26,403 nt of DNA from a virus (lineage: Duplodnaviria; Heunggongvirae; Uroviricota; Caudoviricetes): IMG/VR virus record IMGVR_UViG_2690316269_000009, positions 1 through 26,403 of that record; one strand, 5' to 3'. The translations under genes and the position numbers were made by a program. The notes beneath the pieces were generated by a model. It did not search any database. It had not been told where the DNA came from and worked only from the letters and a program-made list of their open reading frames with translations. Shown piece after piece: positions 2,382 through 26,171 of the stretch. The stretch's first letter is position 1. Each line of letters opens with the position of its first letter.

Positions 2382-3431
2382 TTACCCGAGCACGCCGGTT
2401 GCAAAGGCGTGATCAAGAAAACGAAAAATTAAATCAACCTGGGAACCATGCTTTTCTTCGAACGCCAGCGGATCCGCATGAAGCTCGTTGTGATGCTCCC
2501 GACACAGCGGTAGCGTGAAAATATCGTGGGATTTTGTTCCCATTCCGCCCTGACCATGACCAATCAGATGATGAGGATCGTCCGCTGGCTTACCACAACA
2601 CGCACACGGCTGTGTCTTTACCCAGCGTGTGTATTTCTCATTTACCCAGCGGCGACGTTTAGGTCGTTTCATGAAGGATTCCGGAGACTCCGGATCAACG
2701 GCAATGCTGACCACCGTCTTTTCCTGTGGTGGGTTCTGTTGCTGGTGGGTGTGAGGCGGTAGCGCAATATTTTTTGTGCGCTGCTTCAGTATGCTGGTGG
2801 CGGTCTGCTCTCCCGGCACGATGTCGCTTTCACGGTACATTGAGCGGATTTTTTCCGCACGCCCCCCCAGCGAACGACGTAATACCGCTTCCGGTAGCGC
2901 GTCCGCCACCTGATTGCGGACCGCCCACCAGGATAATTCAGCCAAAGATAATTCACGCTCCTGCGTACCGCTTATTGCGTGACCGATGACGTCAATCATC
3001 CATGCTGACAGGTTTTGATGAGCAAGTTGCTCGAGTGATTCGGATGTCTGGTCACGCAGCTGGTTGTCGCAGTGCCAGCACAACACCATTGCGCCGGTAC
3101 CATAACGGTGAATGACAGTTTCGCTGTGATGATAATCGCCGTGTGGCCACTGGCAGGATTTAATATGGCGCAACAGCCAGTCAGACAATGCACCAGCACC
3201 ACCAGCAGCACGAATCACCCGTGCGTTACTGAAAAACGGCAGCAATGTTTTGTCTTCCACCAGCGGCTGGCGAACGGCAGGAACGACCCCGGACGGCAGA
3301 TTACGCATGCTTTTCGGTTCCGGCTCCATCAATACCCGGGTATTGTGGAATACTGGCATGGATTCACGGCCCGGCTTAACGATCACCAGCCCGAGTTCCG
3401 GTACCAGAACAGGTCGAAGTAATACCCGCAC
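2382..3431 (-). CDS. ydfU: DUF968 family prophage protein (YdfU-like), start codon uncertain (GTG at 3431 or internal ATG)
   Basis: 349-codon ORF; C-terminal Cys/His cluster (CACCGKPADDPHHLIGHGQGG...CREHHNELH); position between rem/hok and rusA matches Qin-type order. Confidence 0.65.
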   Translation of the reverse strand: MRVLLRPVLVPELGLVIVKPGRESMPVFHNTRVLMEPEPKSMRNLPSGVVPAVRQPLVEDKTLLPFFSNARVIRAAGGAGALSDWLLRHIKSCQWPHGDYHHSETVIHRYGTGAMVLCWHCDNQLRDQTSESLEQLAHQNLSAWMIDVIGHAISGTQERELSLAELSWWAVRNQVADALPEAVLRRSLGGRAEKIRSMYRESDIVPGEQTATSILKQRTKNIALPPHTHQQQNPPQEKTVVSIAVDPESPESFMKRPKRRRWVNEKYTRWVKTQPCACCGKPADDPHHLIGHGQGGMGTKSHDIFTLPLCREHHNELHADPLAFEEKHGSQVDLIFRFLDHAFATGVLG

Positions 3432-4177: not shown

Positions 4178-4245
4178 AAGTGCGGGTGCGTTGAGGATGC
4201 CTGCCACATCAGAGGTGGCGAGGGATTTCTCCCTCGCCGGGTCTC

Positions 4246-4401
4246 TTACTCCTCAGGTTCGTAAGCTGTGAAGACAGCGACCTCCGTCTGGCCGGTTCGG
4301 ATTCGTACCTCGCAGAGGTCTTTCCTCGTTACCAGTGTCGTCACTATGACGGTTAAACAGATGACGATCAGGGCGATTAACATCGCCTTTTGCTGCTTCA
4401 T
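4246..4401 (-). CDS. hokD: Hok-family type I toxin (HokD/RelF-like, 51 aa)
   Basis: MKQQKAMLIALIVICLTVIVTTLVTRKDLCEVRIRTGQTEVAVFTAYEPEE: single TM helix plus conserved C-terminus; an in-frame upstream extension to 4458 (MLDTCRLASYVPEGKEKQA) may be the mok-like leader. Confidence 0.8.
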   Translation of the reverse strand: MKQQKAMLIALIVICLTVIVTTLVTRKDLCEVRIRTGQTEVAVFTAYEPEE

Positions 4402-4714
4402 AGCCTGCTTCTCCTTGCCTTCCGGCACGTAAGAGGCTAACCTACATGTGTCTAGCATGAAATTGGCCTCAGATTAATGTTAAGCGTCTTGCAGGACGCG
4501 TAATGTTAACTGGGGCTTTTCTCTATCTGCCTTTGGTGTTCATGCCTGAGACAGATAGCCTCAAGCACCCGCAGCCATTCTACTTAACTCCCGTTACCCC
4601 GCCAATATGAAATCAGTCAGAAAGGCGATCCATAAGAATAATGAATTCTGTAAGGCAATAGTCTCACTGTCTAACATATCTTACCTGATTACTTTACAAT
4701 ATAATAATTCATAG

Positions 4715-5350
4715 TTAAATCAAATGAATGTCATCATCCAATAATTCATTAGTAGTAATACTACCTTTTTTGAAAAAATTTTCATTTGCCTCAGCAATTT
4801 TTGCATCATTAACAAATTCATCACACATCCCAAAATAATGAAAAAATCTATTTAGTTTACATATTCCAATGGTATAGTGCCCTTTAGGTGTTTTGTCCAC
4901 ATAAACACGATTTGCTTTTATAATATGCATCTCATAATCATCTATATGTGGATGAACGATGCGAAATGATGCAGATGCAGTTGGATAGTTTTTGCGCCGC
5001 CCCCCATTTATTACGGGTTCAAATAACACTTCATTTTTACCTTTGAATTCATTGCAGTCAGGACATACTACACATAGATTCTTAGGTTCAAAAATAAAAC
5101 ATAGATATTGAGATTTTGGCACAATATGCTCTATAGGAGCAGCTTGTGCAGCTCTTACCCCAATAGGCTCATGACAATATACACATTCTAGCTTTTGTTC
5201 TTCTCTGTAATGATTTCTAATTTCTGCACGGAGAACTTGCAAATCATCATCTCCCCAGTTGGTATGCTTAAAATCTGGAGAAGACAATTTTTTCTCAATA
5301 ATATCTAATGACTCTGCGCTGAATCTAATTGGATTTTTAATTTTTGGCAT
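4715..5350 (-). CDS. ptuB: HNH endonuclease, Septu PtuB-like (about 211 aa from ATG at 5350; alternative GTG at 5359)
   Basis: HNH signature CVYCHEP...IEHIVPKSQ...NLCVVCPDCNEFKG; start overlaps the 3' end of the upstream ATPase gene (operon coupling). Confidence 0.7.
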   Translation of the reverse strand: MPKIKNPIRFSAESLDIIEKKLSSPDFKHTNWGDDDLQVLRAEIRNHYREEQKLECVYCHEPIGVRAAQAAPIEHIVPKSQYLCFIFEPKNLCVVCPDCNEFKGKNEVLFEPVINGGRRKNYPTASASFRIVHPHIDDYEMHIIKANRVYVDKTPKGHYTIGICKLNRFFHYFGMCDEFVNDAKIAEANENFFKKGSITTNELLDDDIHLI

Positions 5351-6710
5351 AAATTTCACACACCTGAGATACGGAATTTACGAGTTCATTAATAGGGTCA
5401 TTACTATTAACGTTTTCAAGGAGAAGCTGGAGTTGTTTTAATTCACGCCAATTATCATCTGTTACTAACTTAGCAGTCTTAACTTTTGAAAGTAAATTGA
5501 AAGCTAATCTGGCAATGTATTCATTCATAATGCCAGGGGCATCAAATAGTTCCGCAAGTTGATAGTCTGCAGACCGGTTGCTAAAGTATTTTGCTTTATA
5601 AAGATAACTTTTCGACAAAGATGTTATATAACAACCTTTATTCGGCAAATTGGATATTATTTGTGGTGAATGAGTTGCAATTATGAATTGACAACCTGAG
5701 TAAGTTAAAAATGCTTTTGTTAACATAATGATAAACTCTTCCTGCCATCGAGGATGCAAGCTTATTTCCGGTTCATCAATTAGTATTATAGAACCATCAG
5801 TTATATGCCCTGCAATTCCAAGCAACATCACTAATAAACATTGTTCTCCCGAGCTCGCACGTTTAAGTGACATGGGACCATAGCTTTTTTTTATGAGTCG
5901 CATATCCATCAATCTCATGAAGCCAGCGTTCATAAGTTTAAGAATTGATCTAGAAAAATAATTATTCGCATAAGTCGAGCCAACCAATGTTTCACCATTG
6001 GTAAAATCGACTGACAAGGTTACAGCCCTACGTTCAGGTTCAAATCGATTAATTTCAACCAGTGCTTCGTAAATATCATGACGTGATTCGGAGTTTAACT
6101 TTAAGAGACTCTCAATATTCTTCCTGTCAATTTTTATATTGTATTTTAAATATAACTCCTTAACTTCCGTTAATATCTCATCTGAATATACACCAATGAA
6201 GTTATAGTCAGGAGTGTCCGGTCCGTTGTAAGTTGGTTTAAATACAAACTCTATATGGGGCTCAAAATCAATAGAATGAAAAACATCGAGTAAATTTGCA
6301 GGATTTTCTGAATAAGCAAGTTTCTCTAGCCAACCTCTCGCTGCTGAAGATAAAAGGGATACGGCATTTGATACGCCGAAGGGGCCTTCTCCACGCATAC
6401 CCACATAGCGATAATTATTTTCTTTCCTTTGGTGATTTAATGACCTACGCCCTGGAGGGAATTTATCGAATGGGCTGGTAGATACGGCAATTAACTTTGG
6501 TGTTATTTCTCTGTCAAATAATGGATTAAAAGTTTTCAAGAAATGAATATCTTGAATACAGTCTTTAGCAATCTGAGATAACAATCTGCTTTTTCCAACG
6601 CCATTTTTACCTACAATTACTGTAAAAATATTCGCATTATCAGAAACATCACCTTCTATAGCAAGTTTTAAGGTTCGACTATCATGATGGGTATAATATA
6701 GTCTTTTCAT
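5337..6710 (-). CDS. ptuA: AAA15/ABC-type ATPase, Septu PtuA-like (457 aa)
   Basis: Walker A VIVGKNGVGKS near N-terminus, long insertion, ABC signature-like LKRASSGEQ, Walker B ILIDEPEISLH, H-loop IIATHSPQI; ATG at 6708-6710. Confidence 0.7.
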   Translation of the reverse strand: MKRLYYTHHDSRTLKLAIEGDVSDNANIFTVIVGKNGVGKSRLLSQIAKDCIQDIHFLKTFNPLFDREITPKLIAVSTSPFDKFPPGRRSLNHQRKENNYRYVGMRGEGPFGVSNAVSLLSSAARGWLEKLAYSENPANLLDVFHSIDFEPHIEFVFKPTYNGPDTPDYNFIGVYSDEILTEVKELYLKYNIKIDRKNIESLLKLNSESRHDIYEALVEINRFEPERRAVTLSVDFTNGETLVGSTYANNYFSRSILKLMNAGFMRLMDMRLIKKSYGPMSLKRASSGEQCLLVMLLGIAGHITDGSIILIDEPEISLHPRWQEEFIIMLTKAFLTYSGCQFIIATHSPQIISNLPNKGCYITSLSKSYLYKAKYFSNRSADYQLAELFDAPGIMNEYIARLAFNLLSKVKTAKLVTDDNWRELKQLQLLLENVNSNDPINELVNSVSQVCEIYAKN

Positions 6711-7094
6711 TTTATTTTTCTCTCATTAAAATGCTCTTAATTAAGAATACCTATGCCTTTAACAGGCTCATAGTTATGATTTGTGATGCTTTCAAAAGGG
6801 TATGTAACTAAGTATTGAACTCTACACCTAAGATTCTAAGATTTTTAAATTAAAGTAGTTAAACATGCTTTTGATTGTACTCATTCTATGTCCATCGTTG
6901 CTGCATGTCTAGATATCGTGCCCCGCTATTGTTATGTAATGATATGATGGACGCCCTGTCTGAAGCAGCCAGTGAAATATTTTTACTGTCTGCGTTTTCT
7001 ACAGGAGTAAATCACATGAGCACAATCAGAGTTGTTGGTATTGATATTGACCTGTGCCCAATTTTTTGAGACATATATTGGTACGCTCTTGGCA

Positions 7095-7116
7095 CAGGGC
7101 TGCTGCTGCAGCCCTG
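7095..7116. repeat. Perfect 9-bp inverted repeat / hairpin (cagggctgc tgct gcagccctg) just past the recombinase remnant stop
   Basis: Read directly; no adjacent T-run, so not a classical intrinsic terminator; possible recombination site or transcript 3' structure. Confidence 0.4.
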
Positions 7117-7122
7117 ACAGCT

Positions 7123-7691
7123 TTAGACTTCGATCGATTCAGAGATCTCTAATGCATCATCAACTTCTATACCCAGATAACGAACTGTGCTTTCCGTTTT
7201 CTTATGGCCCAACGGAAGTTGGATCACCCGGAGATTCTTAGTTTTCTTGCAGACAAGGCAAGGTTTTGTTCTTCTCATGGAATGTGTGCTGTAAAGCGAA
7301 TCTTCGAGACCAAGCTTTTCTCCCCCCTATGAAAGATTCGGTTATATTGCAGGATTGATATGTGTTGGTTAGTACCGACCCGAGATCGGAACAAGTAGTC
7401 TTTACTGCGTAAATTGCCAAGCTTTATCAATGCAGAAACAGCTTCTCTTGTCCCTTTGGTTATCTCAAATTGGATAGGACTGCCAGTTTTTCAGTTGCAA
7501 CACCGTAGCTCTGCTTGAAACCGAGCTAAATCACGCGTTTTACCTTCCAGTTCAAGCCGGATTTGGAGCCCCCAGATATGAGATATCTGAAGTGGTCTTT
7601 TTGGGCCTATGATACTGTCTTTGTTCCTCGGTGACGTATTCATACTCAAATCTCCTGCAATGTGGAAGATTTGAGTATGGTTGTCTCTCAA
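7123..7691 (-). pseudogene. Degenerate tyrosine recombinase (phage-integrase family) remnant, split across at least three frames
   Basis: C-terminal frame reads ...KNLRVIQLPLGHKKTESTVRYLGIEVDDALEISESIEV* (LGH....T.RY catalytic-Tyr box); upstream frames give LFRSRVGTNQHISILQYNRIFHRG and ALQHTFHEKN with frameshifts and stops between. Confidence 0.45.
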
Positions 7692-7748
7692 GAGCGAAAT
7701 AGGTCAACTATAACTAGTTGTTGTGCATGTACGAATTCTGCCAATTAA

Positions 7749-8591
7749 TTATTGACAATAAAAAATTCTGGAATGTTCGAAATCATCATATCGAATTATA
7801 ATCTGGTTGACTGCATCTATTGTTGGCGCCATTTCAGTTATAATATCTCGATAACCTAAAGAGTTAAATACATTTACTAAGGCCTCACACCGTAGGCCAA
7901 TAGCAATTACGACATTATAAATTGCCAGCCGTTTATTTTCTTGTTTAACTGCAAGAGTGAGTTCGATAGCAGTAGTTTTATCGCTTTGGATTGCATTATA
8001 TAGAGATACTATATTTGCCATATCATCAGAGAATGTATGTATTGAATCACAAAGAGGGACGTAATAGGCATGATAGTGTGTTTCCCAGCCAATTACTTCG
8101 AAAAGCTTTTTGGTTCCAGGATATTCAGGTGTATTTGGCCACAATCTATTAAACATATCAGTTAGCTCTTTTCCGATACGAATCCTTTCATCTGCTGCTG
8201 GATTAGTCATTTCTTTGGATTTTAAACACTCCAGCCACCGTTTCCCATTACTATGAACTAATTTCTTACTACCCTTGAGTAATGCTTGTGCATTTTTTCC
8301 ATCATCAATTGCTATATAAAATTGATTGGCAGCCTGTTCCATTATAACTCTAGTTAATACTTCCGATGCTGAAAAGGCTCCGGTACTCAAAGAAAATATA
8401 GCCTGATTACTAAGTTCATTCAGTACATTAAAGTAATGTAAAACCATCAATTTTTGTTCCACCCCCTTTAGGTTATCTATTTTATTTTTATGCCTCTCAA
8501 ATTTCGCATGGATATATTTATTTATCGCGGCTATTTTTTTTACATCTTCGTCGAAATCAAACGGGCAACGTCCAAACGATTTTTTCCTCAT
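7749..8591 (-). CDS. Hypothetical protein (280 aa), unrecognised; candidate single-gene abortive-infection/defence factor
   Basis: Clean ORF with ATG at 8589-8591 and strong AGGAGG Shine-Dalgarno 6-8 nt upstream; AT-rich; same orientation as the ATPase/HNH pair. Confidence 0.6.
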   Translation of the reverse strand: MRKKSFGRCPFDFDEDVKKIAAINKYIHAKFERHKNKIDNLKGVEQKLMVLHYFNVLNELSNQAIFSLSTGAFSASEVLTRVIMEQAANQFYIAIDDGKNAQALLKGSKKLVHSNGKRWLECLKSKEMTNPAADERIRIGKELTDMFNRLWPNTPEYPGTKKLFEVIGWETHYHAYYVPLCDSIHTFSDDMANIVSLYNAIQSDKTTAIELTLAVKQENKRLAIYNVVIAIGLRCEALVNVFNSLGYRDIITEMAPTIDAVNQIIIRYDDFEHSRIFYCQ

Positions 8592-9030
8592 ATATTCCTC
8601 CTGTTTTACAATCTCCCATAAGTTGGAAAATTATACACTGGAGATTACCTATAAATAACTGCGCACGATAGCTAGTCAGTGCAAGAAGTACAACCAAGTG
8701 AACGGTGCGTATCAGATACCTAGCTTAAAGTTCGCGATAGCCGTACTCTGTGTATTAGCTCAGACATTACCTGACAGGTTGAGTAGATAGAATCGAATCA
8801 AAGCTGACAGTCTGGTTTGGACTGTGGGGTCAACCGATGGATGCAACACACAGCGATCTACAGACATTACTAACATAGCGGTGTATTAATCATCGGGGAG
8901 CAGATCAGACTAACATTAAGCATTAGTAGTAATTTGCAGAGCATCCGTTTCTTACACAAAGCAAACCCCCACGCTAGCCCAACCCTGTGCCACACAATGT
9001 CAATTCACATCTGAACTAATGCTCTTTAAT

Positions 9031-9305
9031 CTAGTAACGTCTAAAATATCGAACATTTCCCTGATAAAATGCCAGTATGCGCTGCATAACTTCACTCATT
9101 GTGGTGGTTTCTTCCGGCAGTTCTGCCTGCGCTGGCTGTTCCTGCTGAACGTTGTTATCAGCCACACGCCAGGTGTACGCGCTTTTATCAACAAAACCAG
9201 CCTTTTTCAGTTCCCATAGTTCGTTCAGCACTTCTTCACGCGCGCAGCAAGTTCTATGGATGTGGCTTTTCCCATTGCTTTCAGTGCGTCAAAAACAGTC
9301 TCCAT
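9031..9305 (-). pseudogene. Small prophage gene with -1 frameshift ([24 protein letters not shown] | [28 protein letters not shown]...)
   Basis: ATG at 9303-9305 with strong GGGAGG RBS; frame hits TGA after 26 codons while the protein-like reading continues in the -1 frame (track ORF 9031..9231). Shift maps to gtgaagaagtg. Confidence 0.45.
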
Positions 9306-9337
9306 AAATTTCCTCCCGGTAAAAATTACTTCTCAAC

Positions 9338-10003
9338 TCAGACAAGCCCAGCCGCTTTCCGGCGTTCATATTCCTGTTTCAGCAACTCAATTGGCGTTGG
9401 CCCCGACGGGCGTTTGGGTGCCGCCAGTTGTCGCCGGACTGGCGGAACACTCAGGCCGTTACTAACATGCTTTGCCCATTTCGTCAGCTGCCGTTCTGCA
9501 AGCCGTTTTAACTCCCCTTCGGTCATCTGCCGCTCAATCCCCTTTGAACGCATCTCGAGGCAAATGTGATACAGCACAGGCTGAGACCACGGGTATTTAT
9601 CGCTCCCGTCGTATCGCCAGGACTCGTTGCGCCAGCGACGGTACTCCTCCATCACGGCATCCACCGTCAGACCGAATGGATTGGCTCCGCTTTCAGAAAT
9701 CAGCGCCACAAACTCAGCCAGGTCCGGAGGCCATGTTTCACCCGCCCGGCAGCGGTCCATGCACTGGCGGCAGACCTGTCGGATTTTCTGCTCAGTCATC
9801 GCACCAATCTGTGCAATCCAGAGCTTCGAAGGTGCGGCCCCGTTCTTCTGGGTCCAGCGGTTCGAATAAACCTCCCCCATGAGTTCCCACAGCTTCCAGG
9901 CCGTTTCCGTCGCTGATAAATCCGTTTTCACGTTCCCACTGCTCACGTGCTGCCCGAATTTCCTGAACTGCCCGTGATGCGGTGTCACCTGGTGCTGCTG
10001 CAT
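9338..10003 (-). CDS. Replication protein P-like (helicase-loader family); true start uncertain because of overlap with upstream gene
   Basis: C-terminal two-thirds (FVALISESGANPFGLTVDAVMEEYRRWR...YPWSQPVLYHICLEMRSKG...ELKRLAERQLTKWAKHV) parallels lambda P as recalled; located 3' of the O-like gene. Confidence 0.6.
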   Translation of the reverse strand: MQQHQVTPHHGQFRKFGQHVSSGNVKTDLSATETAWKLWELMGEVYSNRWTQKNGAAPSKLWIAQIGAMTEQKIRQVCRQCMDRCRAGETWPPDLAEFVALISESGANPFGLTVDAVMEEYRRWRNESWRYDGSDKYPWSQPVLYHICLEMRSKGIERQMTEGELKRLAERQLTKWAKHVSNGLSVPPVRRQLAAPKRPSGPTPIELLKQEYERRKAAGLV

Positions 10004-13813: not shown

Positions 13814-16285
13814 ATGAGTAAAGTCTTTATTTGCGCCGCTATTCCTGACGAACTGGCAACAAGGGAAGAAGGCGCTGTGGCTGTAGCCACAGCCATTGAA
13901 GCTGGCGACGAACGCCGTGCTCGAGCAAAATTTCACTGGCAATTCCTGGAACATTATCCGGCTGCTCAGGACTGCGCTTATAAATTTATTGTCTGCGAGG
14001 ATAAACCTGGCATACCCCGCCCTGCCCTCGATTCATGGGATGCTGAATATATGCAGGAAAACCGCTGGGATGAGGATTCTGCTTCTTTTGTCCCGGTTGA
14101 GACTGAATCCGATCCGATGAACGTCACTTTTGACAAGCTGGCCCCTGAAGTACAGAACGCTGTCATGGTTAAGTTCGACACATGTGAAAACATCACCGTT
14201 GATATGGTGATTAGCGCACAGGAATTGTTGCAGGAAGACATGGCAACATTCGACGGACATATCGTTGAAGCGTTGATGAAAATGCCAGAAGTTAACGCCA
14301 TGTATCCGGAGCTTAAGCTGCATGCCATCGGGTGGGTTAAGCATAAATGTAAGCCTGGTGCCAAATGGCCCGAAATTCAGGCAGAGATGCGCATCTGGAA
14401 AAAACGTCGCGAAGGTGAACGCAAGGAAACCGGAAAATACACGTCTGTTGTTGATCTCGCCCGCGCCAGAGTCAATCAACAGCACACTGAAAATTCAACA
14501 GGAAAAATCAGCCTGGTCATTGCTGCCATTCATCGCGAATACAAGCAGACATGGAAAACACTGGATGACGAACTGGCCTACGCTCTCTGGCCTGGTGATG
14601 TGGATGCCGGAAACATTGACGGCAGCATCCATCGCTGGGCAAAAAATGAAGTTATCGACAACTACCGCGAAGACTGGAAGCGTATCTCGGCATCAATGCG
14701 CAAACAGCCTGATGCCCTTCGCTACGACCGCCAGACTATTTTTGGCCTTGTCCGTGAACGTCCGATCGACATTCACAAAGACCCTGTGGCACTGAACAAA
14801 TACATTACTGAATACCTGACTACAAAGGGCGTGTTTGAAGATGAAGGAACAAATCAGAGCGCAACTGATACTCTCTCGTCGCCAGTACCAGAAACTGATG
14901 CAGTGGAAACGGCAATTCCGGACAACGAAAAAACCGAATGCAAAGTGGAAGTCGAACCATCTGTAGAGCGTGAGGGGCCGTTCTACTTCCTCTTCACCGA
15001 CAAGGATGGCGAAAAATACGGTCGCGCAAACAAACTTTCTGGTCTGGATAAGGCACTGGCTGCCGGGGCTACTGAAATCACGAAAGAAGAATATTTCGCC
15101 CGCAAAAACGGTACATACTCAGGTTCACAACAAAATACTGGTGCATCTGACACGACCGCACAACCAGAGCCGGTAAAAGTTACCGCTGACGAAGTAAACA
15201 AAATTATGCAGGCAGCCAATATCAGCCAGCCTGACGCCGATAAGTTGCTTGCTGCCTCTCGCGGAGAATTTGTTGCAGGGATTAGCGACCCGAATGATCC
15301 GAAATGGGTTAAGGGGATCCAGACCCGCGATTCTGTAAACCAGAACCAGCATGAATCGGAACGGAACTACCAAAAAGCGGAACAAAACAGCCCAAATGCG
15401 TTACAAAACGAGCCAGAAACGAAACAGCCTGAACCAGTGGCGCAACAGGAAGTGGAAAAAGTCTGCACCGCCTGCGGTCAGACCGGCGGCGGCAACTGCC
15501 CTGATTGTGGCGCGGTGATGGGCGACGCAACATACCAGGAAACATTCGATGAAGAGTATCAGGTTGAAGTTCAGGAAGATGATCCGGAGAAAATGGAAGG
15601 CGCTGAACATCCACACAAGGAGAACACTGGCGGCAATCAGCATCACGATAGCGATAATGAAACTGGCGAGACGGCAGATCACTCAATTAAGGTGAACGGT
15701 CATCAAGAAATCACATCCACCAGCAGGACGTGTGACCATCTAATGATCGACCTTGAAACCATGGGAAAAAATCCTGATGCCCCGATCATCTCAATAGGTG
15801 CAATATTTTTCGATCCGCAAACCGGAGATATGGGACCGGAATTTAGTAAGACTATCGATCTGGAAACTGCTGGCGGAGTCATTGATCGGGACACCATTAA
15901 ATGGTGGCTTAAGCAATCACGCGAAGCGCAATCTGCCATTATGACCGATGAAATCCAGTTAGATGATGCACTGTTACAATTGCGGGAATTTATCGACGAA
16001 AACTCCGGTGAATTTTTTGTTCAGGTCTGGGGAAATGGAGCCAACTTCGACAACACGATTTTGCGCCGTTCATACGAACGGCAGGGGATCCCCTGCCCGT
16101 GGCGTTACTACAACGATCGCGATGTACGCACAATCGTTGAGCTGGGGAAAGCCATAGACTTCGATGCCAGAACGGCTATTCCATTCGAAGGTGAGCGCCA
16201 TAATGCACTTGATGACGCCCGTTACCAGGCAAAATACGTTTCAGTTATCTGGCAAAAACTGATCCCGAGTCAGGCTGATTTTTAA
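13814..16285 (+). CDS. Large early-operon exonuclease (about 823 aa) with C-terminal DEDDh (DnaQ-like) 3'-5' exonuclease domain
   Basis: ATG at 13814 with GAGG RBS; C-terminus has Exo I MIDLETMG, Exo II VWGNGANFD, Exo III HNALDDARYQ; acidic linker with Cys4 ribbon CTACGQTGGGNCPDCG. Confidence 0.7.
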   Translation: MSKVFICAAIPDELATREEGAVAVATAIEAGDERRARAKFHWQFLEHYPAAQDCAYKFIVCEDKPGIPRPALDSWDAEYMQENRWDEDSASFVPVETESDPMNVTFDKLAPEVQNAVMVKFDTCENITVDMVISAQELLQEDMATFDGHIVEALMKMPEVNAMYPELKLHAIGWVKHKCKPGAKWPEIQAEMRIWKKRREGERKETGKYTSVVDLARARVNQQHTENSTGKISLVIAAIHREYKQTWKTLDDELAYALWPGDVDAGNIDGSIHRWAKNEVIDNYREDWKRISASMRKQPDALRYDRQTIFGLVRERPIDIHKDPVALNKYITEYLTTKGVFEDEGTNQSATDTLSSPVPETDAVETAIPDNEKTECKVEVEPSVEREGPFYFLFTDKDGEKYGRANKLSGLDKALAAGATEITKEEYFARKNGTYSGSQQNTGASDTTAQPEPVKVTADEVNKIMQAANISQPDADKLLAASRGEFVAGISDPNDPKWVKGIQTRDSVNQNQHESERNYQKAEQNSPNALQNEPETKQPEPVAQQEVEKVCTACGQTGGGNCPDCGAVMGDATYQETFDEEYQVEVQEDDPEKMEGAEHPHKENTGGNQHHDSDNETGETADHSIKVNGHQEITSTSRTCDHLMIDLETMGKNPDAPIISIGAIFFDPQTGDMGPEFSKTIDLETAGGVIDRDTIKWWLKQSREAQSAIMTDEIQLDDALLQLREFIDENSGEFFVQVWGNGANFDNTILRRSYERQGIPCPWRYYNDRDVRTIVELGKAIDFDARTAIPFEGERHNALDDARYQAKYVSVIWQKLIPSQADF

Positions 16286-16547: not shown

Positions 16548-17572
16548 TGGGAAGACGAAGGAAAAATCCTGAACACGAAAAACTACCTCCAAATGTATAC
16601 CCAAATAAATATAGTTATGTATGGAAACCAACATCCAGAGAATCTGTCACACTAACCGCCATCAAGGATGGTTTAGCTGCTTTATGGAAAAAGTATGAGG
16701 AAACTGTAAATAATCGCGATCGTGCAATGACATTCGGTCGCTTGTGGGAAAAATTCCTCGCCAGCGCCTATTACAGTGACCTCAGTCCAAGAACACAAAA
16801 AGATTATCTGCAACATCAAAAAAAGTTGCTTGCCGTATTCGGTAAGGTGCCGGCAGATTCCATAAAACCAGAACACATCCGTCGATACATGGACAAGAGA
16901 GGGGAACAGAGTAAAACGCAAGCCAACCATGAAAAAAGCAGTATGTCCCGCGTTTACAGTTGGGGGTATGAGCGAGGGTACGTGAAGGCTAACCCATGTG
17001 CAGGTGTAAGTAAATTCAAGGCCAAAAACCGCGAACGATATGTAACCGACAAAGAATACCAGGCAGTATTAAGCGTTGCACCTCTTCCTGTTTTTATCGC
17101 AATGGAAATTGCCTATCTGTGTGCAGCGAGGGTTTCCGATGTGTTATCGCTGAAATGGGAGCAGATTGGAAACGACGGAATCTTTATCCAGCAAGGGAAA
17201 ACAGGAAAAAAACAGATAAAAGCATGGAGTCCACGATTACAGGCGGCGATCGAAAAAGCAAAACAGTTACCAACATCCGCCTATGTAATCAGTAATCAAT
17301 ACGGCAACCGATATATGTACAAAGGCTTTAACGAAATGTGGGTAGAAGCAAGAAATCGCGCAGGCAAAATTTCAGGTATTTTAACCGACTTCACCTTTCA
17401 TGATCTGAAGGCGAAAGGAATTTCAGACTATGAAGGAAGCAGTCGGGATAAGCAACTTTTCTCTGGTCACAAAACCGAGGGGCAAGTGCTAATCTATGAC
17501 AGGAAGGTTAAAGTTTCACCGACACTTGATGTCCCGTTACCTGAAAATATTCCAAGAAAATATTCCAAGTAA
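16547..17572 (+). CDS. Tyrosine site-specific integrase (phage integrase family, 341 aa)
   Basis: Typical size and tyrosine-recombinase organisation; ends 53 bp from the 3' end of tRNA-Ser. Confidence 0.85.
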   Translation: MGRRRKNPEHEKLPPNVYPNKYSYVWKPTSRESVTLTAIKDGLAALWKKYEETVNNRDRAMTFGRLWEKFLASAYYSDLSPRTQKDYLQHQKKLLAVFGKVPADSIKPEHIRRYMDKRGEQSKTQANHEKSSMSRVYSWGYERGYVKANPCAGVSKFKAKNRERYVTDKEYQAVLSVAPLPVFIAMEIAYLCAARVSDVLSLKWEQIGNDGIFIQQGKTGKKQIKAWSPRLQAAIEKAKQLPTSAYVISNQYGNRYMYKGFNEMWVEARNRAGKISGILTDFTFHDLKAKGISDYEGSSRDKQLFSGHKTEGQVLIYDRKVKVSPTLDVPLPENIPRKYSK

Positions 17573-18901: not shown

Positions 18902-19094
18902 GCTATGAACGCCATCACCATTTTCCCCTCGATTATAAAACTTGAGTTATTCAGTAGTCTCCCCTCTTGCAACTCACACTCAAAACTGCCTAACGAAAAG
19001 TTATTAATTTTCAATCATATTGCTATCAGGATTTACATTTTTTCGCTGTGCTAGAAAGGGCGCATTTATGTTAGCTCGTTCAGGGAAGGTAAGC

Positions 19095-26171
<7,077 letters not shown>

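Follow-up and report, generated by a model that had tools for sequence, protein, structure and literature searches.

A Decayed Small Tyrosine Recombinase beside Septu Defence Genes in a Prophage, and Its Relation to a Candidate Cassette-Exchange System with Two Types of 24-bp Site

Genes and Features of the Locus

The window (the whole 26,403-nucleotide stretch of prophage DNA analyzed here) has a variable region that starts at position 4643, and a 4.4-kb block (4643-9098) is missing as a whole from sister prophages. The slot lies between hokD and the replication genes of this Rac/Qin-like prophage; in related prophages it is filled by many other cargos, mostly without a recombinase, and some of these (e.g., Paa) are without the 24-bp sites, of two types designated C and G, that are described below. 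The block contains the following features:

4715-6710, minus strand: Septu pair, with PtuB/HNH at 4715-5359 and PtuA at 5337-6710 (PADLOC, Pfam)
6935-7050, plus strand: truncated left end of an IS110-family element with its first 11 codons (nucleotide matches)
7081-7104: G-type 24-bp site, GTACGCT-CTTGGCACAG-GGCTGCT, at the 3' end of the recombinase unit (site scan, comparison)
7095-7116, minus strand: perfect 9-bp inverted repeat, CAGGGCTGC-TGCT-GCAGCCCTG, directly after the recombinase stop codon (sequence, folding)
7124-7643, minus strand: tyrosine recombinase pseudogene, 200 aa, catalytic domain only (alignment to intact relatives, PGAP)
7641-7679, minus strand: perfect 13-bp inverted repeat with a 13-nt spacer, over the recombinase start (sequence, folding)
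7679-7705, minus strand: remnant of the C-type 5' end of the recombinase unit (comparison with L004 and L047)
7749-8591, minus strand: intact gene for a 280-aa DUF5677 protein, in the same orientation as the recombinase and upstream of it (Pfam, comparison)
8842-8908: degenerate C-like site (8842-8865) followed by an inverted "leader" of ~42 bp (~8867-8908) (comparison)
8943-8966: decayed resident G-type site, ATCCGTT-TCTTACACAA-AGCAAAC, the right edge of the variable cargo region (comparison)

Septu is represented by adjacent genes for a PtuA ATPase and a PtuB HNH nuclease (PADLOC, 1.9e-165 and 1.1e-83, respectively), with Pfam matches to AAA_21/AAA_15 and HNH. The far junction of the pair does not coincide with a site; what is missing there, compared with the sister prophages, is their resident C site and 240 bp of phage DNA, and a scrap of IS110 separates Septu from the recombinase. 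Sought elsewhere as a site-bounded cassette, the exact Septu allele was found only in this one prophage arrangement, and no sites lie near Septu relatives at 41-51% identity.

Minus-strand reading frames contain segments of a tyrosine recombinase (including ...LPLGHKKTESTVRYLGIEVDDALEISESIEV*), split as the preliminary description of this DNA had reported, and the gene can be followed from an ATG at 7643 to a stop at 7126-7124. An intact relative of 200 aa (WP_001305361; L002:6043-6645), to which the window copy is 90.6% identical at the nucleotide level, matches Pfam PF00589 (Phage_integrase) with 69 bits (E = 5e-19, cut-off 27.1) and is thus a tyrosine recombinase; by way of this relative, the similarity claimed for the translated fragments proved significant. 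In the window copy, an 82-bp deletion at ~7528 has taken out codons 39-66 and with them the Arg-I box (DSKLRGCDL), the frame is shifted by +1 through a 1-bp insertion at ~7491 and by -1 through a 1-bp deletion at ~7325, and substitutions are present at the invariant positions W, Q13, Y155, L170, and L176 of a 13-sequence family alignment (A3). In that alignment R50, H147, R150, H173, and Y182 are invariant among the intact relatives. A functional enzyme would carry Arg-I, Lys, His-x-x-Arg, His/Trp, and Tyr in one open reading frame (ORF); here Arg-I is deleted and two frameshifts interrupt the frame. Judged by these lesions, positions 7124-7643 hold an inactivated gene for a small tyrosine recombinase of 200 aa, and its status as a pseudogene is already known from the annotation of Escherichia coli E2348/69, in which NCBI PGAP labels this copy [quoted passage not shown]

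The intact protein aligns to residues 131-279 of XerD, with only ~35 residues ahead of the catalytic domain; it consists of that domain only and has neither an arm-binding nor a core-binding domain. All of its scores against the NCBIfam integrase and Xer models are far below the cut-offs; the best NCBIfam match (NF040815, XerA/integron integrase) reaches 58 bits against a cut-off of 220, so the protein does not classify as an IntI. PADLOC and NCBIfam searches returned no family for the recombinase or for DUF5677.

Palindromes are found at both ends of the gene. The perfect 9-bp repeat to which the preliminary description had drawn attention (7095-7116) is present; its predicted folding energy is -20.8 kcal/mol (z = -2.4), and its family-wide conservation with compensatory changes in four of eight pairs indicates more than chance. 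A pattern scan for intrinsic terminators makes no call on this hairpin, and no T-run follows the stem on either strand. At the other end, RNA folded from the 13-bp repeat (-21.9 kcal/mol, z = -5.6) would pair the recombinase's Shine-Dalgarno sequence and its start codon, and this hairpin probably keeps read-through transcripts from being translated. The recombinase-gene-side arm of the G site (7081-7104) is replaced by the 3' half of the 9-bp hairpin; the remnant at 7679-7705 retains the TCGCTC centre, and its outer arm is replaced, likewise in the other DUF5677-linked copies (L004 and L047). The full framing of a recombinase unit, with a G site and hairpin after the stop, a C-type end ~60 bp upstream, and a start-codon palindrome, can thus be recognized in the window. 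Apart from sok, neither window positions 4400-9400 nor an intact array gave a match in Rfam scans; the hairpins and sites match no Rfam family.

The 17-codon ORF at 7017-7070, taken earlier for a truncated transposase or recombinase N-terminus, is a chimera in which the transposase reading holds for the first 11 codons (IS110 family); the remainder is non-IS sequence. The IS110 match comprises these codons and the 82 bp upstream of the ORF and is 77-91% identical to intact and fragmentary IS110-family left ends; the intact comparator (L007:2584-3618) encodes a transposase with 335 bits against NCBIfam transpos_IS110 (NF033542). On these matches, 6935-7050 is an IS110 fragment, not an element.

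DUF5677 and the recombinase form a block that travels together in three contexts; a P2-like prophage carries it at ~89% identity, as does a Buttiauxella genome without Septu. A search of the DUF5677 profile against PDB sequences gave no match. DUF5677 was considered as an obligate partner of the recombinase and rejected, the pairing being confined to three related loci and a 53%-identical homolog having no adjoining recombinase or sites. The ~42-bp leader follows G sites in many cassettes; homology of the window to the P2-like copy stops at 8908, where the inverted leader copy ends. The decayed G site at 8943-8966 has intact homologs in sister prophages (L003:13869 and L229:5059), and the window is left with only one good and one decayed site. 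A 13-nt inverted match (7090-7102 and 8980-8992) was examined as a pair of module-flanking repeats and rejected as chance-level, 8943-8966 being the true decayed site.

Read from right to left, the array consists of a decayed G site, DUF5677, the recombinase pseudogene and the G site belonging to it, the IS110 scrap, and Septu, with no C site; by its sequence it is a fossil. In this state it can therefore no longer exchange cargo. For the window itself this is a modest result, a dead array whose cargo is by now a fixed part of the prophage.

The Intact Recombinase Unit and Its Sites

Intact recombinase genes form a discrete unit of ~705 bp framed by two 24-bp sites. The family has at least 7,999 matches, in Gammaproteobacteria (7,999 of the 8,000 candidates scored, E <= 1e-5). 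In ~45 genomes the flanks are unrelated beyond GTCCGCT...AGCGGAC, and one identical Proteus recombinase protein occurs in at least five contexts that share just 702-716 bp at ~98% identity. The sites have the form GTCCGCT-N10-AGCGGAC, with 7-bp inverted arms and a 10-bp asymmetric centre (a division between arm and centre that is a guess), and fall into two classes by centre, C (TCGCTC) and G (TGGCAC), which are rarely mixed. With a 10-bp spacer, 230 sites were counted against 2 in shuffled sequence, and spacers of 9 or 11 bp gave background counts only; a scan that classifies centres found 304 sites against 6 in shuffled sequence. The centres comprise 219 TCGCTCA, 184 TGGCAC[N], and nine of the hybrid TGGCTCA (~2% of sites). 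The centres are nearly invariant and do not mark an exact crossover position.

Many sites are paired: there are 52 doublets, mostly with a start-to-start spacing of 42 bp. Such 66-bp C/G doublets separate adjacent cassettes, and the recombinase unit itself has the structure of a doublet in which the gene replaces the linker. Neighboring sites more than 100 bp apart are arranged G-/C+ or the reverse in 174 of 288 pairs, against 12.5% expected at random; some arrays have C+/C+ or G-/G- neighbors. Most loci that have the recombinase gene intact (42 of 51) contain further sites, and site density falls from 2-4 per 10 kb within 4 kb of the gene to 0.4 at 9-10 kb. The exact C-site pattern was found in at least 120 viral contigs.

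Cassettes at Hot Spots of Phages, Satellites, and Islands

Sites, single or as 66-bp doublets, bracket cargo at three variable spots: P2 Z/fun, the slot of Rac/Qin-like lambdoid prophages, and a P4-like island. The cassettes measure 0.4-7.5 kb (median 1.8 kb) and typically have one G site and one C site as their ends. Their cargo includes defence systems (Lamassu, PARIS, HerA/SIR2, Lit, Thoeris, CBASS, Pycsar, DRT, GmrSD, and PD-T4-2) as well as MFS, LysR, and AraC proteins, hydrolases, and Pfam Cass2 ("Integron-associated effector binding protein").

In several comparisons the boundaries coincide with sites. A 4,485-bp block of Proteus occurs at a prophage end and again, with 99.9% identity, in a P4-like island; its ends are a G site and a C site, and only the outward site arms differ between the two contexts. 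Between two lambdoid prophages with the same backbone, homology is lost inside the left C site and resumes with base 1 of the right G site. Of the six P2-like prophages fetched, each with a cargo of its own, five share the position of a C site and have a G site beside the tail-fibre-assembly gene, the sixth having the G site only; in these sites the arm toward the phage does not vary, whereas the arm toward the cargo does. In phage P2 itself, fun(Z) has a G site on one side (15335-15358) and a C site on the other (17432-17455).

Inverted repeats at the P2 Z/fun hot spot were reported by Nilsson, Karlsson, and Haggard-Ljungquist (2004, Mol Biol Evol 21:1). According to its summary, inverted repeats flank fun(Z) and other inserts at this hot spot, and site-specific exchange between phages and enterobacterial genomes was proposed (PMC8987985). 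The G and C sites around fun(Z), and around five of the P2-like cargos, are almost certainly the repeats described in that summary. A 2026 study of P2/P4 hot spots weighs several exchange mechanisms and settles on none; in its main text, site-specific recombination is named only for the elements' own integrase, and no discussion of the fun-flanking repeats was seen. A literature search (site sequence, small tyrosine recombinases, integron- or attC-like defence cassettes), in which the 2004 P2 paper was represented by its summary only, found no description of the cassette system, and the link between the P2 fun repeats and the recombinase may be new.

Proposed Exchange and Alternative Explanations

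The comparisons suggest that the recombinase and the C and G sites form an exchange system for cargo, of which the window would hold a fossil array; on these comparative grounds we give this reading a probability of roughly 0.6. The recombinase would act on both C and G sites. A cassette would lie between two different, non-cross-reacting sites, and a C-by-C and a G-by-G crossover between co-resident DNAs would swap the cargo; such a double crossover would require no sequence homology, would keep the orientation of the cargo, and would be the natural equivalent of engineered recombinase-mediated cassette exchange (RMCE). Most cassettes have no recombinase gene nearby and would be served in trans. 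Points against the model are the lack of a core-binding domain, the C+/C+ or G-/G- neighbors in some arrays, the cargos that occupy the slot without sites, the site-bearing loci in which no recombinase was found (described below), and the 10-bp centre, which is longer than usual; in sites of tyrosine recombinases the centre usually has 6-8 bp. The window gives no support for the arrival of Septu itself by site-based exchange, its far side being without a site.

The preliminary description proposed a nested, self-contained integrative element that carried the ATPase/HNH (Septu) genes into the prophage with its own integrase and att sites and then lost the recombinase. The decayed recombinase does adjoin imported defence genes, the block is absent from sister prophages, and the association of this recombinase family with imported cargo has turned out to be systematic. 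The partner with which the recombinase co-travels is DUF5677, however, not Septu, from which it is divided by the IS110 scrap. The insertion boundaries sought were recovered in part: the right edge of the cargo falls exactly at the family site 8943-8966, but the far Septu junction is not at a site, and around the region there are no flanking direct repeats beyond chance 12-17-mers that could be att sites. Moreover, a protein that lacks any N-terminal binding domain and scores far under every integrase and Xer cut-off would be a poor fit to such an element, and other cargos occupy this slot, a general hot spot, with no recombinase. We regard an element of this kind as very improbable.

A second view, in which the enzyme is a FimB/FimE-like invertase that flips cassettes or short promoter-bearing segments between inverted sites (phase variation) and moves nothing, draws on the FimB/FimE-like size of the protein, the inverted-arm sites that flank cassettes, the orientation of the leader (opposite in the window, L004, and L047 to that in other cassettes), and the existence of a few hybrid centres. 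Its match to the NCBIfam "tyrosine-type DNA invertase" (NF007371, FimB/FimE-type) is weak, though (25.5 bits, E = 8e-6), and far below the model cut-off of 222; C-by-G inversion would produce hybrid C/G centres, which are rare, and it would yield neither different cargo in identical backbones nor identical cargo in different backbones, so that we consider inversion an unlikely explanation. It might also be that the sites serve some other machinery, such as a recombinase of the host or of a helper phage or a structure-specific process at palindromes, with the small recombinase gene a mere cassette passenger. The summary of the 2004 work describes the sites and names no enzyme (PMC8987985). Within the DNA fetched per locus, only 2 of 120 site-bearing viral loci have the recombinase, and a Qin-like prophage locus of strain 222 keeps its sites with no recombinase gene annotated in the stretch fetched; a different enzyme could therefore act on the sites. 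Such a role is improbable, given that in ~45 genomes the two ends of the recombinase gene are half-sites, one C and one G, placed as in a doublet, that site density is highest around the gene, and that inverted arms with a short asymmetric centre are expected of the sites of a tyrosine recombinase. Nor are the 24-bp sites known to resemble dif, the XerCD site.

Under exchange by the recombinase at C and G sites, it is conceivable, if somewhat doubtful, that anti-phage and other accessory genes are swapped mainly by natural cassette exchange among P2-like, Rac/Qin-like lambdoid, P4-like satellite, ICE, and genomic-island hot spots in Enterobacterales and other Gammaproteobacteria, most cassettes being non-autonomous and served in trans. 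The analysis provides a candidate enzyme and a precise site definition for the movement of defence systems between mobile elements without homology and almost without transposons. Since the variable DNA of three classic hot spots starts and stops in the 24-bp sites, the question of exchange is directly testable. As a practical rule, a G site and a C site ~0.4-8 kb apart delimit cassettes, which allows new defence genes to be mined.

Comparison with Known Systems

Several known systems share part of this organization. In pdif modules, cargo is likewise bracketed by inverted recombination sites and served in trans, but by host XerCD and at dif-like sites, which the 24-mers are not known to resemble. 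In the RAYT/REPIN system the gene for the enzyme lies between inverted copies of its own repeat, and repeat doublets are dispersed in the genome; RAYTs, however, are HUH enzymes and not members of the Phage_integrase family. The R64 shufflon (Rci, sfx) and the FimB/FimE switch also combine small or simplified tyrosine recombinases with short sites in inverted orientation, and the sfx crossover core, GTGCCAA, resembles the G-site centre GTGCCA. No significant family-level match to these recombinases was found with NCBIfam; the known systems invert fixed segments and vary one product, whereas here the cargo differs between otherwise identical backbones.

In engineered RMCE with heterospecific lox or FRT pairs, a cassette lies between sites that have the same arms and different, non-cross-reacting centres, and two crossovers exchange it without homology. 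RMCE is a laboratory design; the natural counterpart suggested here is drawn from comparison. In integrons, too, accessory and defence cassettes that are poor in promoters form arrays, with short imperfect palindromes between the cassettes and at most one tyrosine recombinase per array, and the cargo spectrum is similar, even to Cass2. In contrast to integrons, the recombinase described here has 200 aa and lacks both a core-binding domain and the IntI-specific insertion; the sites are double-stranded and of two alternating types, where integrons have a single folded attC; the gene for the recombinase is enclosed in a site doublet and does not adjoin an attI; and the arrays are situated in phage, satellite, and ICE hot spots.

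The Prophage and Its Variable Slot

The window represents a Rac/Qin-like lambdoid prophage of Escherichia coli (26.4 kb), matching strain AMSHJX01 at 100% and E2348/69 at 99.8% identity across the region. Its genes run from a Q-like antiterminator, RusA, and DUF968 through rem, hokD/sok, PtuB, PtuA, a recombinase remnant, and DUF5677 to the replication genes, cro/cI, exonuclease, xis, and int; an ORF of 2,383 aa (19020-26171, + strand) lies just past the integrase end. Comparison with sister prophages, which share this backbone, defines a variable slot from 4643 to ~9098. The right edge is canonical: sister-prophage homology begins at 8943/8944, at a decayed copy of a G site, one of two classes (C and G) of 24-bp palindromic site. 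The left edge is non-canonical, since sister prophages run 240 bp further to a resident C site and the window lacks both the 240 bp and the site. The sok antisense RNA of the hokD/sok toxin-antitoxin locus (4404-4570, - strand; Rfam RF01794, 110 bits) lies directly at this edge; in E2348/69 (L001, 5662-6750) an IS481-family insertion separates the HNH gene from hokD, whereas the window (~4640) lacks it and so is distinct from that strain. Leftward from its right edge, the slot contains the following features, with Septu beyond the last.

8943-8966: decayed G site, ATCCGTT-TCTTACACAA-AGCAAAC, homologous to intact sites in the sister prophages L003 and L229
8842-8908: degenerate C-like site and inverted "leader" of ~42 bp, leftward of the decayed G site
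7749-8591 (-): 280-aa gene encoding a DUF5677 protein
7679-7705: remnant of the C end of a recombinase unit
7641-7679: start-codon palindrome
7643 (ATG) to 7126-7124 (stop), (-): dead recombinase gene, as aligned to the gene for WP_001305361
7095-7116: hairpin
7081-7104: G site of the recombinase unit
6935-7050: IS110 scrap

The Recombinase and Its Unit

The preliminary description reported tyrosine recombinase segments on the minus strand, split by frameshifts and stops. Six-frame translation recovers these segments (including LGHKKTESTVRYLGIEVDDALEISESIEV*), and PGAP annotates the corresponding part of E2348/69 as [quoted passage not shown] Among intact E. coli relatives the nearest is WP_001305361 (L002, 6043-6645), a 200-aa "site-specific integrase" that scores 69 bits against Pfam Phage_integrase. 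Relative to it, the dead gene has lost 82 bp at ~7528 (codons 39-66, with the Arg-I box), gained 1 bp at ~7491, and lost 1 bp at ~7325; several residues invariant in a 13-sequence alignment of the family are also substituted. The pseudogene itself is ordinary and already annotated; the interest lies in what it points to, a putative exchange of cassettes.

The family is very large and conserved (7,999 of 8,000 candidates scored at E ≤ 1e-5); the best 120 matches of these 8,000 show 76-96% identity, with Idiomarina, Pseudoalteromonas, and Cycloclasticus among them. The recombinase is present in 802 of 5,426 complete E. coli genomes. The protein is no more than a catalytic domain, which aligns with residues 131-279 of XerD, and its scores fall far short of every Xer, integron-integrase, and invertase model cut-off. 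One identical Proteus protein is found in at least five unrelated contexts, beside ThsB-TIR, SMC/AAA, SIR2+DUF87, Lit-like, and other genes; all that these contexts have in common is 702-716 bp at ~98% identity. Across ~45 genomes the boundaries of this unit are sharp, at (AAC)GTCCGCTyyTCGCTCAT... ~60 bp ahead of the ATG and at ...CAGGGCTGCAACAGCAGCCCTGTGCCAGAAGCGGAC(GTT) ~45 bp past the stop, and the flanks beyond are unrelated. The two ends are imperfect inverted repeats of one another. In marine Gammaproteobacteria (L009-L017; protein P0055) the unit is located inside an apparent ICE, between arsenic-resistance and copper-resistance clusters, with an IS4-type (DDE_Tnp_1) element just after its G site in several copies.

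Predicted hairpins lie at both ends of the gene. The perfect 9-bp inverted repeat noted earlier is indeed present at 7095-7116; this 3′ hairpin (-20.8 kcal/mol, z = -2.4) is conserved, with compensatory changes in four of eight pairs, and pattern searching made no terminator call. It overlaps the G site and may replace its inner arm. For the 5′ palindrome the values are -21.9 kcal/mol (z = -5.6) here and, in an intact copy, -23.9 kcal/mol (z = -6.3); it pairs the Shine-Dalgarno sequence and AUG, and its pairing is kept across lineages, with one covarying pair. Fold-back inhibition has been described for IS10, and by analogy the palindrome would block translation of read-through transcripts.

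Paired Sites and Their Cassettes

A scan of all fetched loci identified the unit ends as halves of a 24-bp element, GTCCGCT-N10-AGCGGAC. With up to two arm mismatches allowed, the element occurs 230 times versus 2 in shuffled sequence; spacers of 9 or 11 bp give only 5-6 occurrences. There are two classes of center, TCGCTCA (C; 219 sites) and TGGCAC[N] (G; 184 sites), and a hybrid, TGGCTCA (9 sites). Doublets of 66 bp (n = 52), flanked by unrelated sequence, consist of a C site, a linker of ~18 bp (CTTCAGCTCAGTTAGCT), and a G site; the doublet is present in 874 of 5,426 complete E. coli genomes. At least 120 IMG/VR contigs contain the C-site pattern in its exact form (~0.05 expected by chance, by our rough estimate). 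The array order, with the recombinase on the + strand, is G- cargo [C+ G-] cargo [C+ recombinase G-] cargo C+ (signs give orientation). Of 288 adjacent site pairs separated by over 100 bp, 174 show G-/C+ or the reverse, versus 12.5% expected at random.

In many cassettes (e.g., L065, L071, and L080) the G site is followed by a conserved ~42-bp leader (…TGTTAATCAAyGGrGAGCAGrTCA), which the window has at 7037-7080 and ~8867-8908; in the window, a P2-like prophage (L004), and a Buttiauxella genome (L047), the leader is inverted, with a G site on one side and a degenerate C-like site on the other. It might serve as a third site, promoter, or IS target.

Among the largest ORFs of 136 non-redundant cassettes, matches to defence systems included NsnA, PD-T4-2, PD-T7-1, PD-T7-5, Lit, Lamassu, Dsr1, HerA, DRT (UG17), a type IV restriction enzyme, CBASS cyclase, ThsB, Pycsar cyclase, and GmrSD. 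Other cargo included MFS, LysR, and AraC proteins, hydrolases, GNAT, NUDIX, and the Pfam family Cass2 ("Integron-associated effector binding protein").

The limits of homology lie within the sites. A Proteus block of 4,485 bp, with copies 99.9% identical at the end of a prophage and inside a P4-like island, runs from within a G site to within a C site; inner arms and centers are common to both contexts, which differ in the outward arms only. Two E. coli prophages with the backbone of the window carry different cargo (three cassettes and an intact recombinase versus DUF4209), and their homology breaks off inside the left C site and returns with the opening base of the G site on the right. Six prophages were fetched for the P2 Z/fun hot spot. 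In five of them a C site stands at a constant position and a G site beside the tail-fibre-assembly gene, enclosing HEPN, DUF2971, S1 peptidase, DUF4435, or DUF5677 plus recombinase; the arm on the phage side stays the same and the one on the cargo side varies. The sixth has a G site only. Phage P2 itself (L250, AF063097) has its T5-exclusion gene, fun(Z), bracketed by a G site at 15335-15358 and a C site at 17432-17455 (836-859 and 2933-2956 of L250).

In a Qin-like prophage of E. coli strain 222 (L230), flxA and part of ydfV lie between a G- and a C+ site (3209-3232 and 4200-4223), and a further decayed G site (8798) marks the right edge of the slot. Thus placed, flxA, which belongs to the classic Qin/K-12-type prophage, resembles such a cassette.

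Proposed Cassette Exchange and Its Alternatives

Because every cassette sits between sites with like arms and different, seldom mixed centers, a C-by-C and a G-by-G crossover between two DNAs present together would exchange the cargo, needing no homology and keeping its orientation. From these comparisons of sequence we infer site-specific cassette exchange, which would account for constant phage-side and variable cargo-side arms, for one cassette in unrelated elements, for different cassettes within identical backbones, and for cassettes without a recombinase of their own.

Less probably, palindromic sites of this kind serve inversion or phase variation. A different enzyme acting on the 24-bp sites is likewise a less probable alternative: within the DNA examined per contig, 2 of 120 site-bearing IMG/VR contigs carry the recombinase. 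Up to 4 kb from an intact recombinase gene there are 2-4 sites per 10 kb, and at a distance of 9-10 kb there are 0.4 per 10 kb (0.03 in shuffled sequence).

The preliminary description favored a nested integrative element that carried in the ATPase/HNH pair and afterwards lost its recombinase. That pair is Septu (PADLOC; PtuA, 1.9e-165; PtuB, 1.1e-83), and the recombinase travels with DUF5677 instead. The DUF5677-recombinase block (window 7159-8908) recurs at ~89% identity, with the recombinase intact, in L004, between tail sheath and tail-fibre-assembly genes, and the block is also found in L047; Septu is absent from both, and its allele is known only in the arrangement of the window (19 complete E. 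coli genomes and seven viral contigs), which links the recombinase to DUF5677 and not to Septu. Septu occupies the position of a cassette downstream of the unit, but with the resident C site absent on the left edge of the slot, its arrival by site-specific exchange is conjectural. The array in the window is now inert: its recombinase is dead, and of the two resident sites one is missing and the other decayed.

The same description took a 17-codon ORF (7017-7070) for a truncated transposase N-terminus. This holds for its first 11 codons, which with 82 bp upstream (6935-7050) match the left end of IS110-family elements (77-91% identity). The ~119-bp fragment (6932-7049; L005, 4001-4119; L006, 4001-4085) is present, though unannotated, in ~580 complete E. 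coli genomes, in island intergenic regions such as that beside a tRNA-Leu island integrase adjoining BREX genes. The best sigma-70-like match in the intergenic region (TAGACA-17-TAGAAT, 10/12; 6883-6911, - strand) lies upstream of PtuA and could, as a pattern match, drive Septu.

The DUF5677 protein had no match in PADLOC, NCBIfam, or PDB. Its family is small (53 representative clusters at E ≤ 1e-3), with invariant residues R80, E84, P157, F163, Y172, and H184 in the consensus motifs EALSRVxxE and SDSVHxxSED. We rejected DUF5677 as an obligate partner of the recombinase: the pairing occurs in three loci only (the window, L004, and L047), and a 53%-identical homolog has neither recombinase nor sites beside it. 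A recent screen found DUF5677 enriched beside small serine recombinases in Bacillota and detected no anti-phage activity for it in its test panel.

Comparison with Known Systems

The P2 Z/fun sites were already known from Nilsson et al. (2004), as summarized in a review (PMC8987985); the sites around P2 fun(Z) are probably the "inverted repeats" of the 2004 report. That study aside, we found no description in the literature searched of two site classes, doublets, arrays, lambdoid and P4-like hot spots, or a link to the recombinase. Hot-spot papers of 2022 and 2026 do not use the 24-bp sites, and the latter leaves the exchange mechanism unsettled. The proposed C-by-C and G-by-G swap would follow the same logic as engineered recombinase-mediated cassette exchange.
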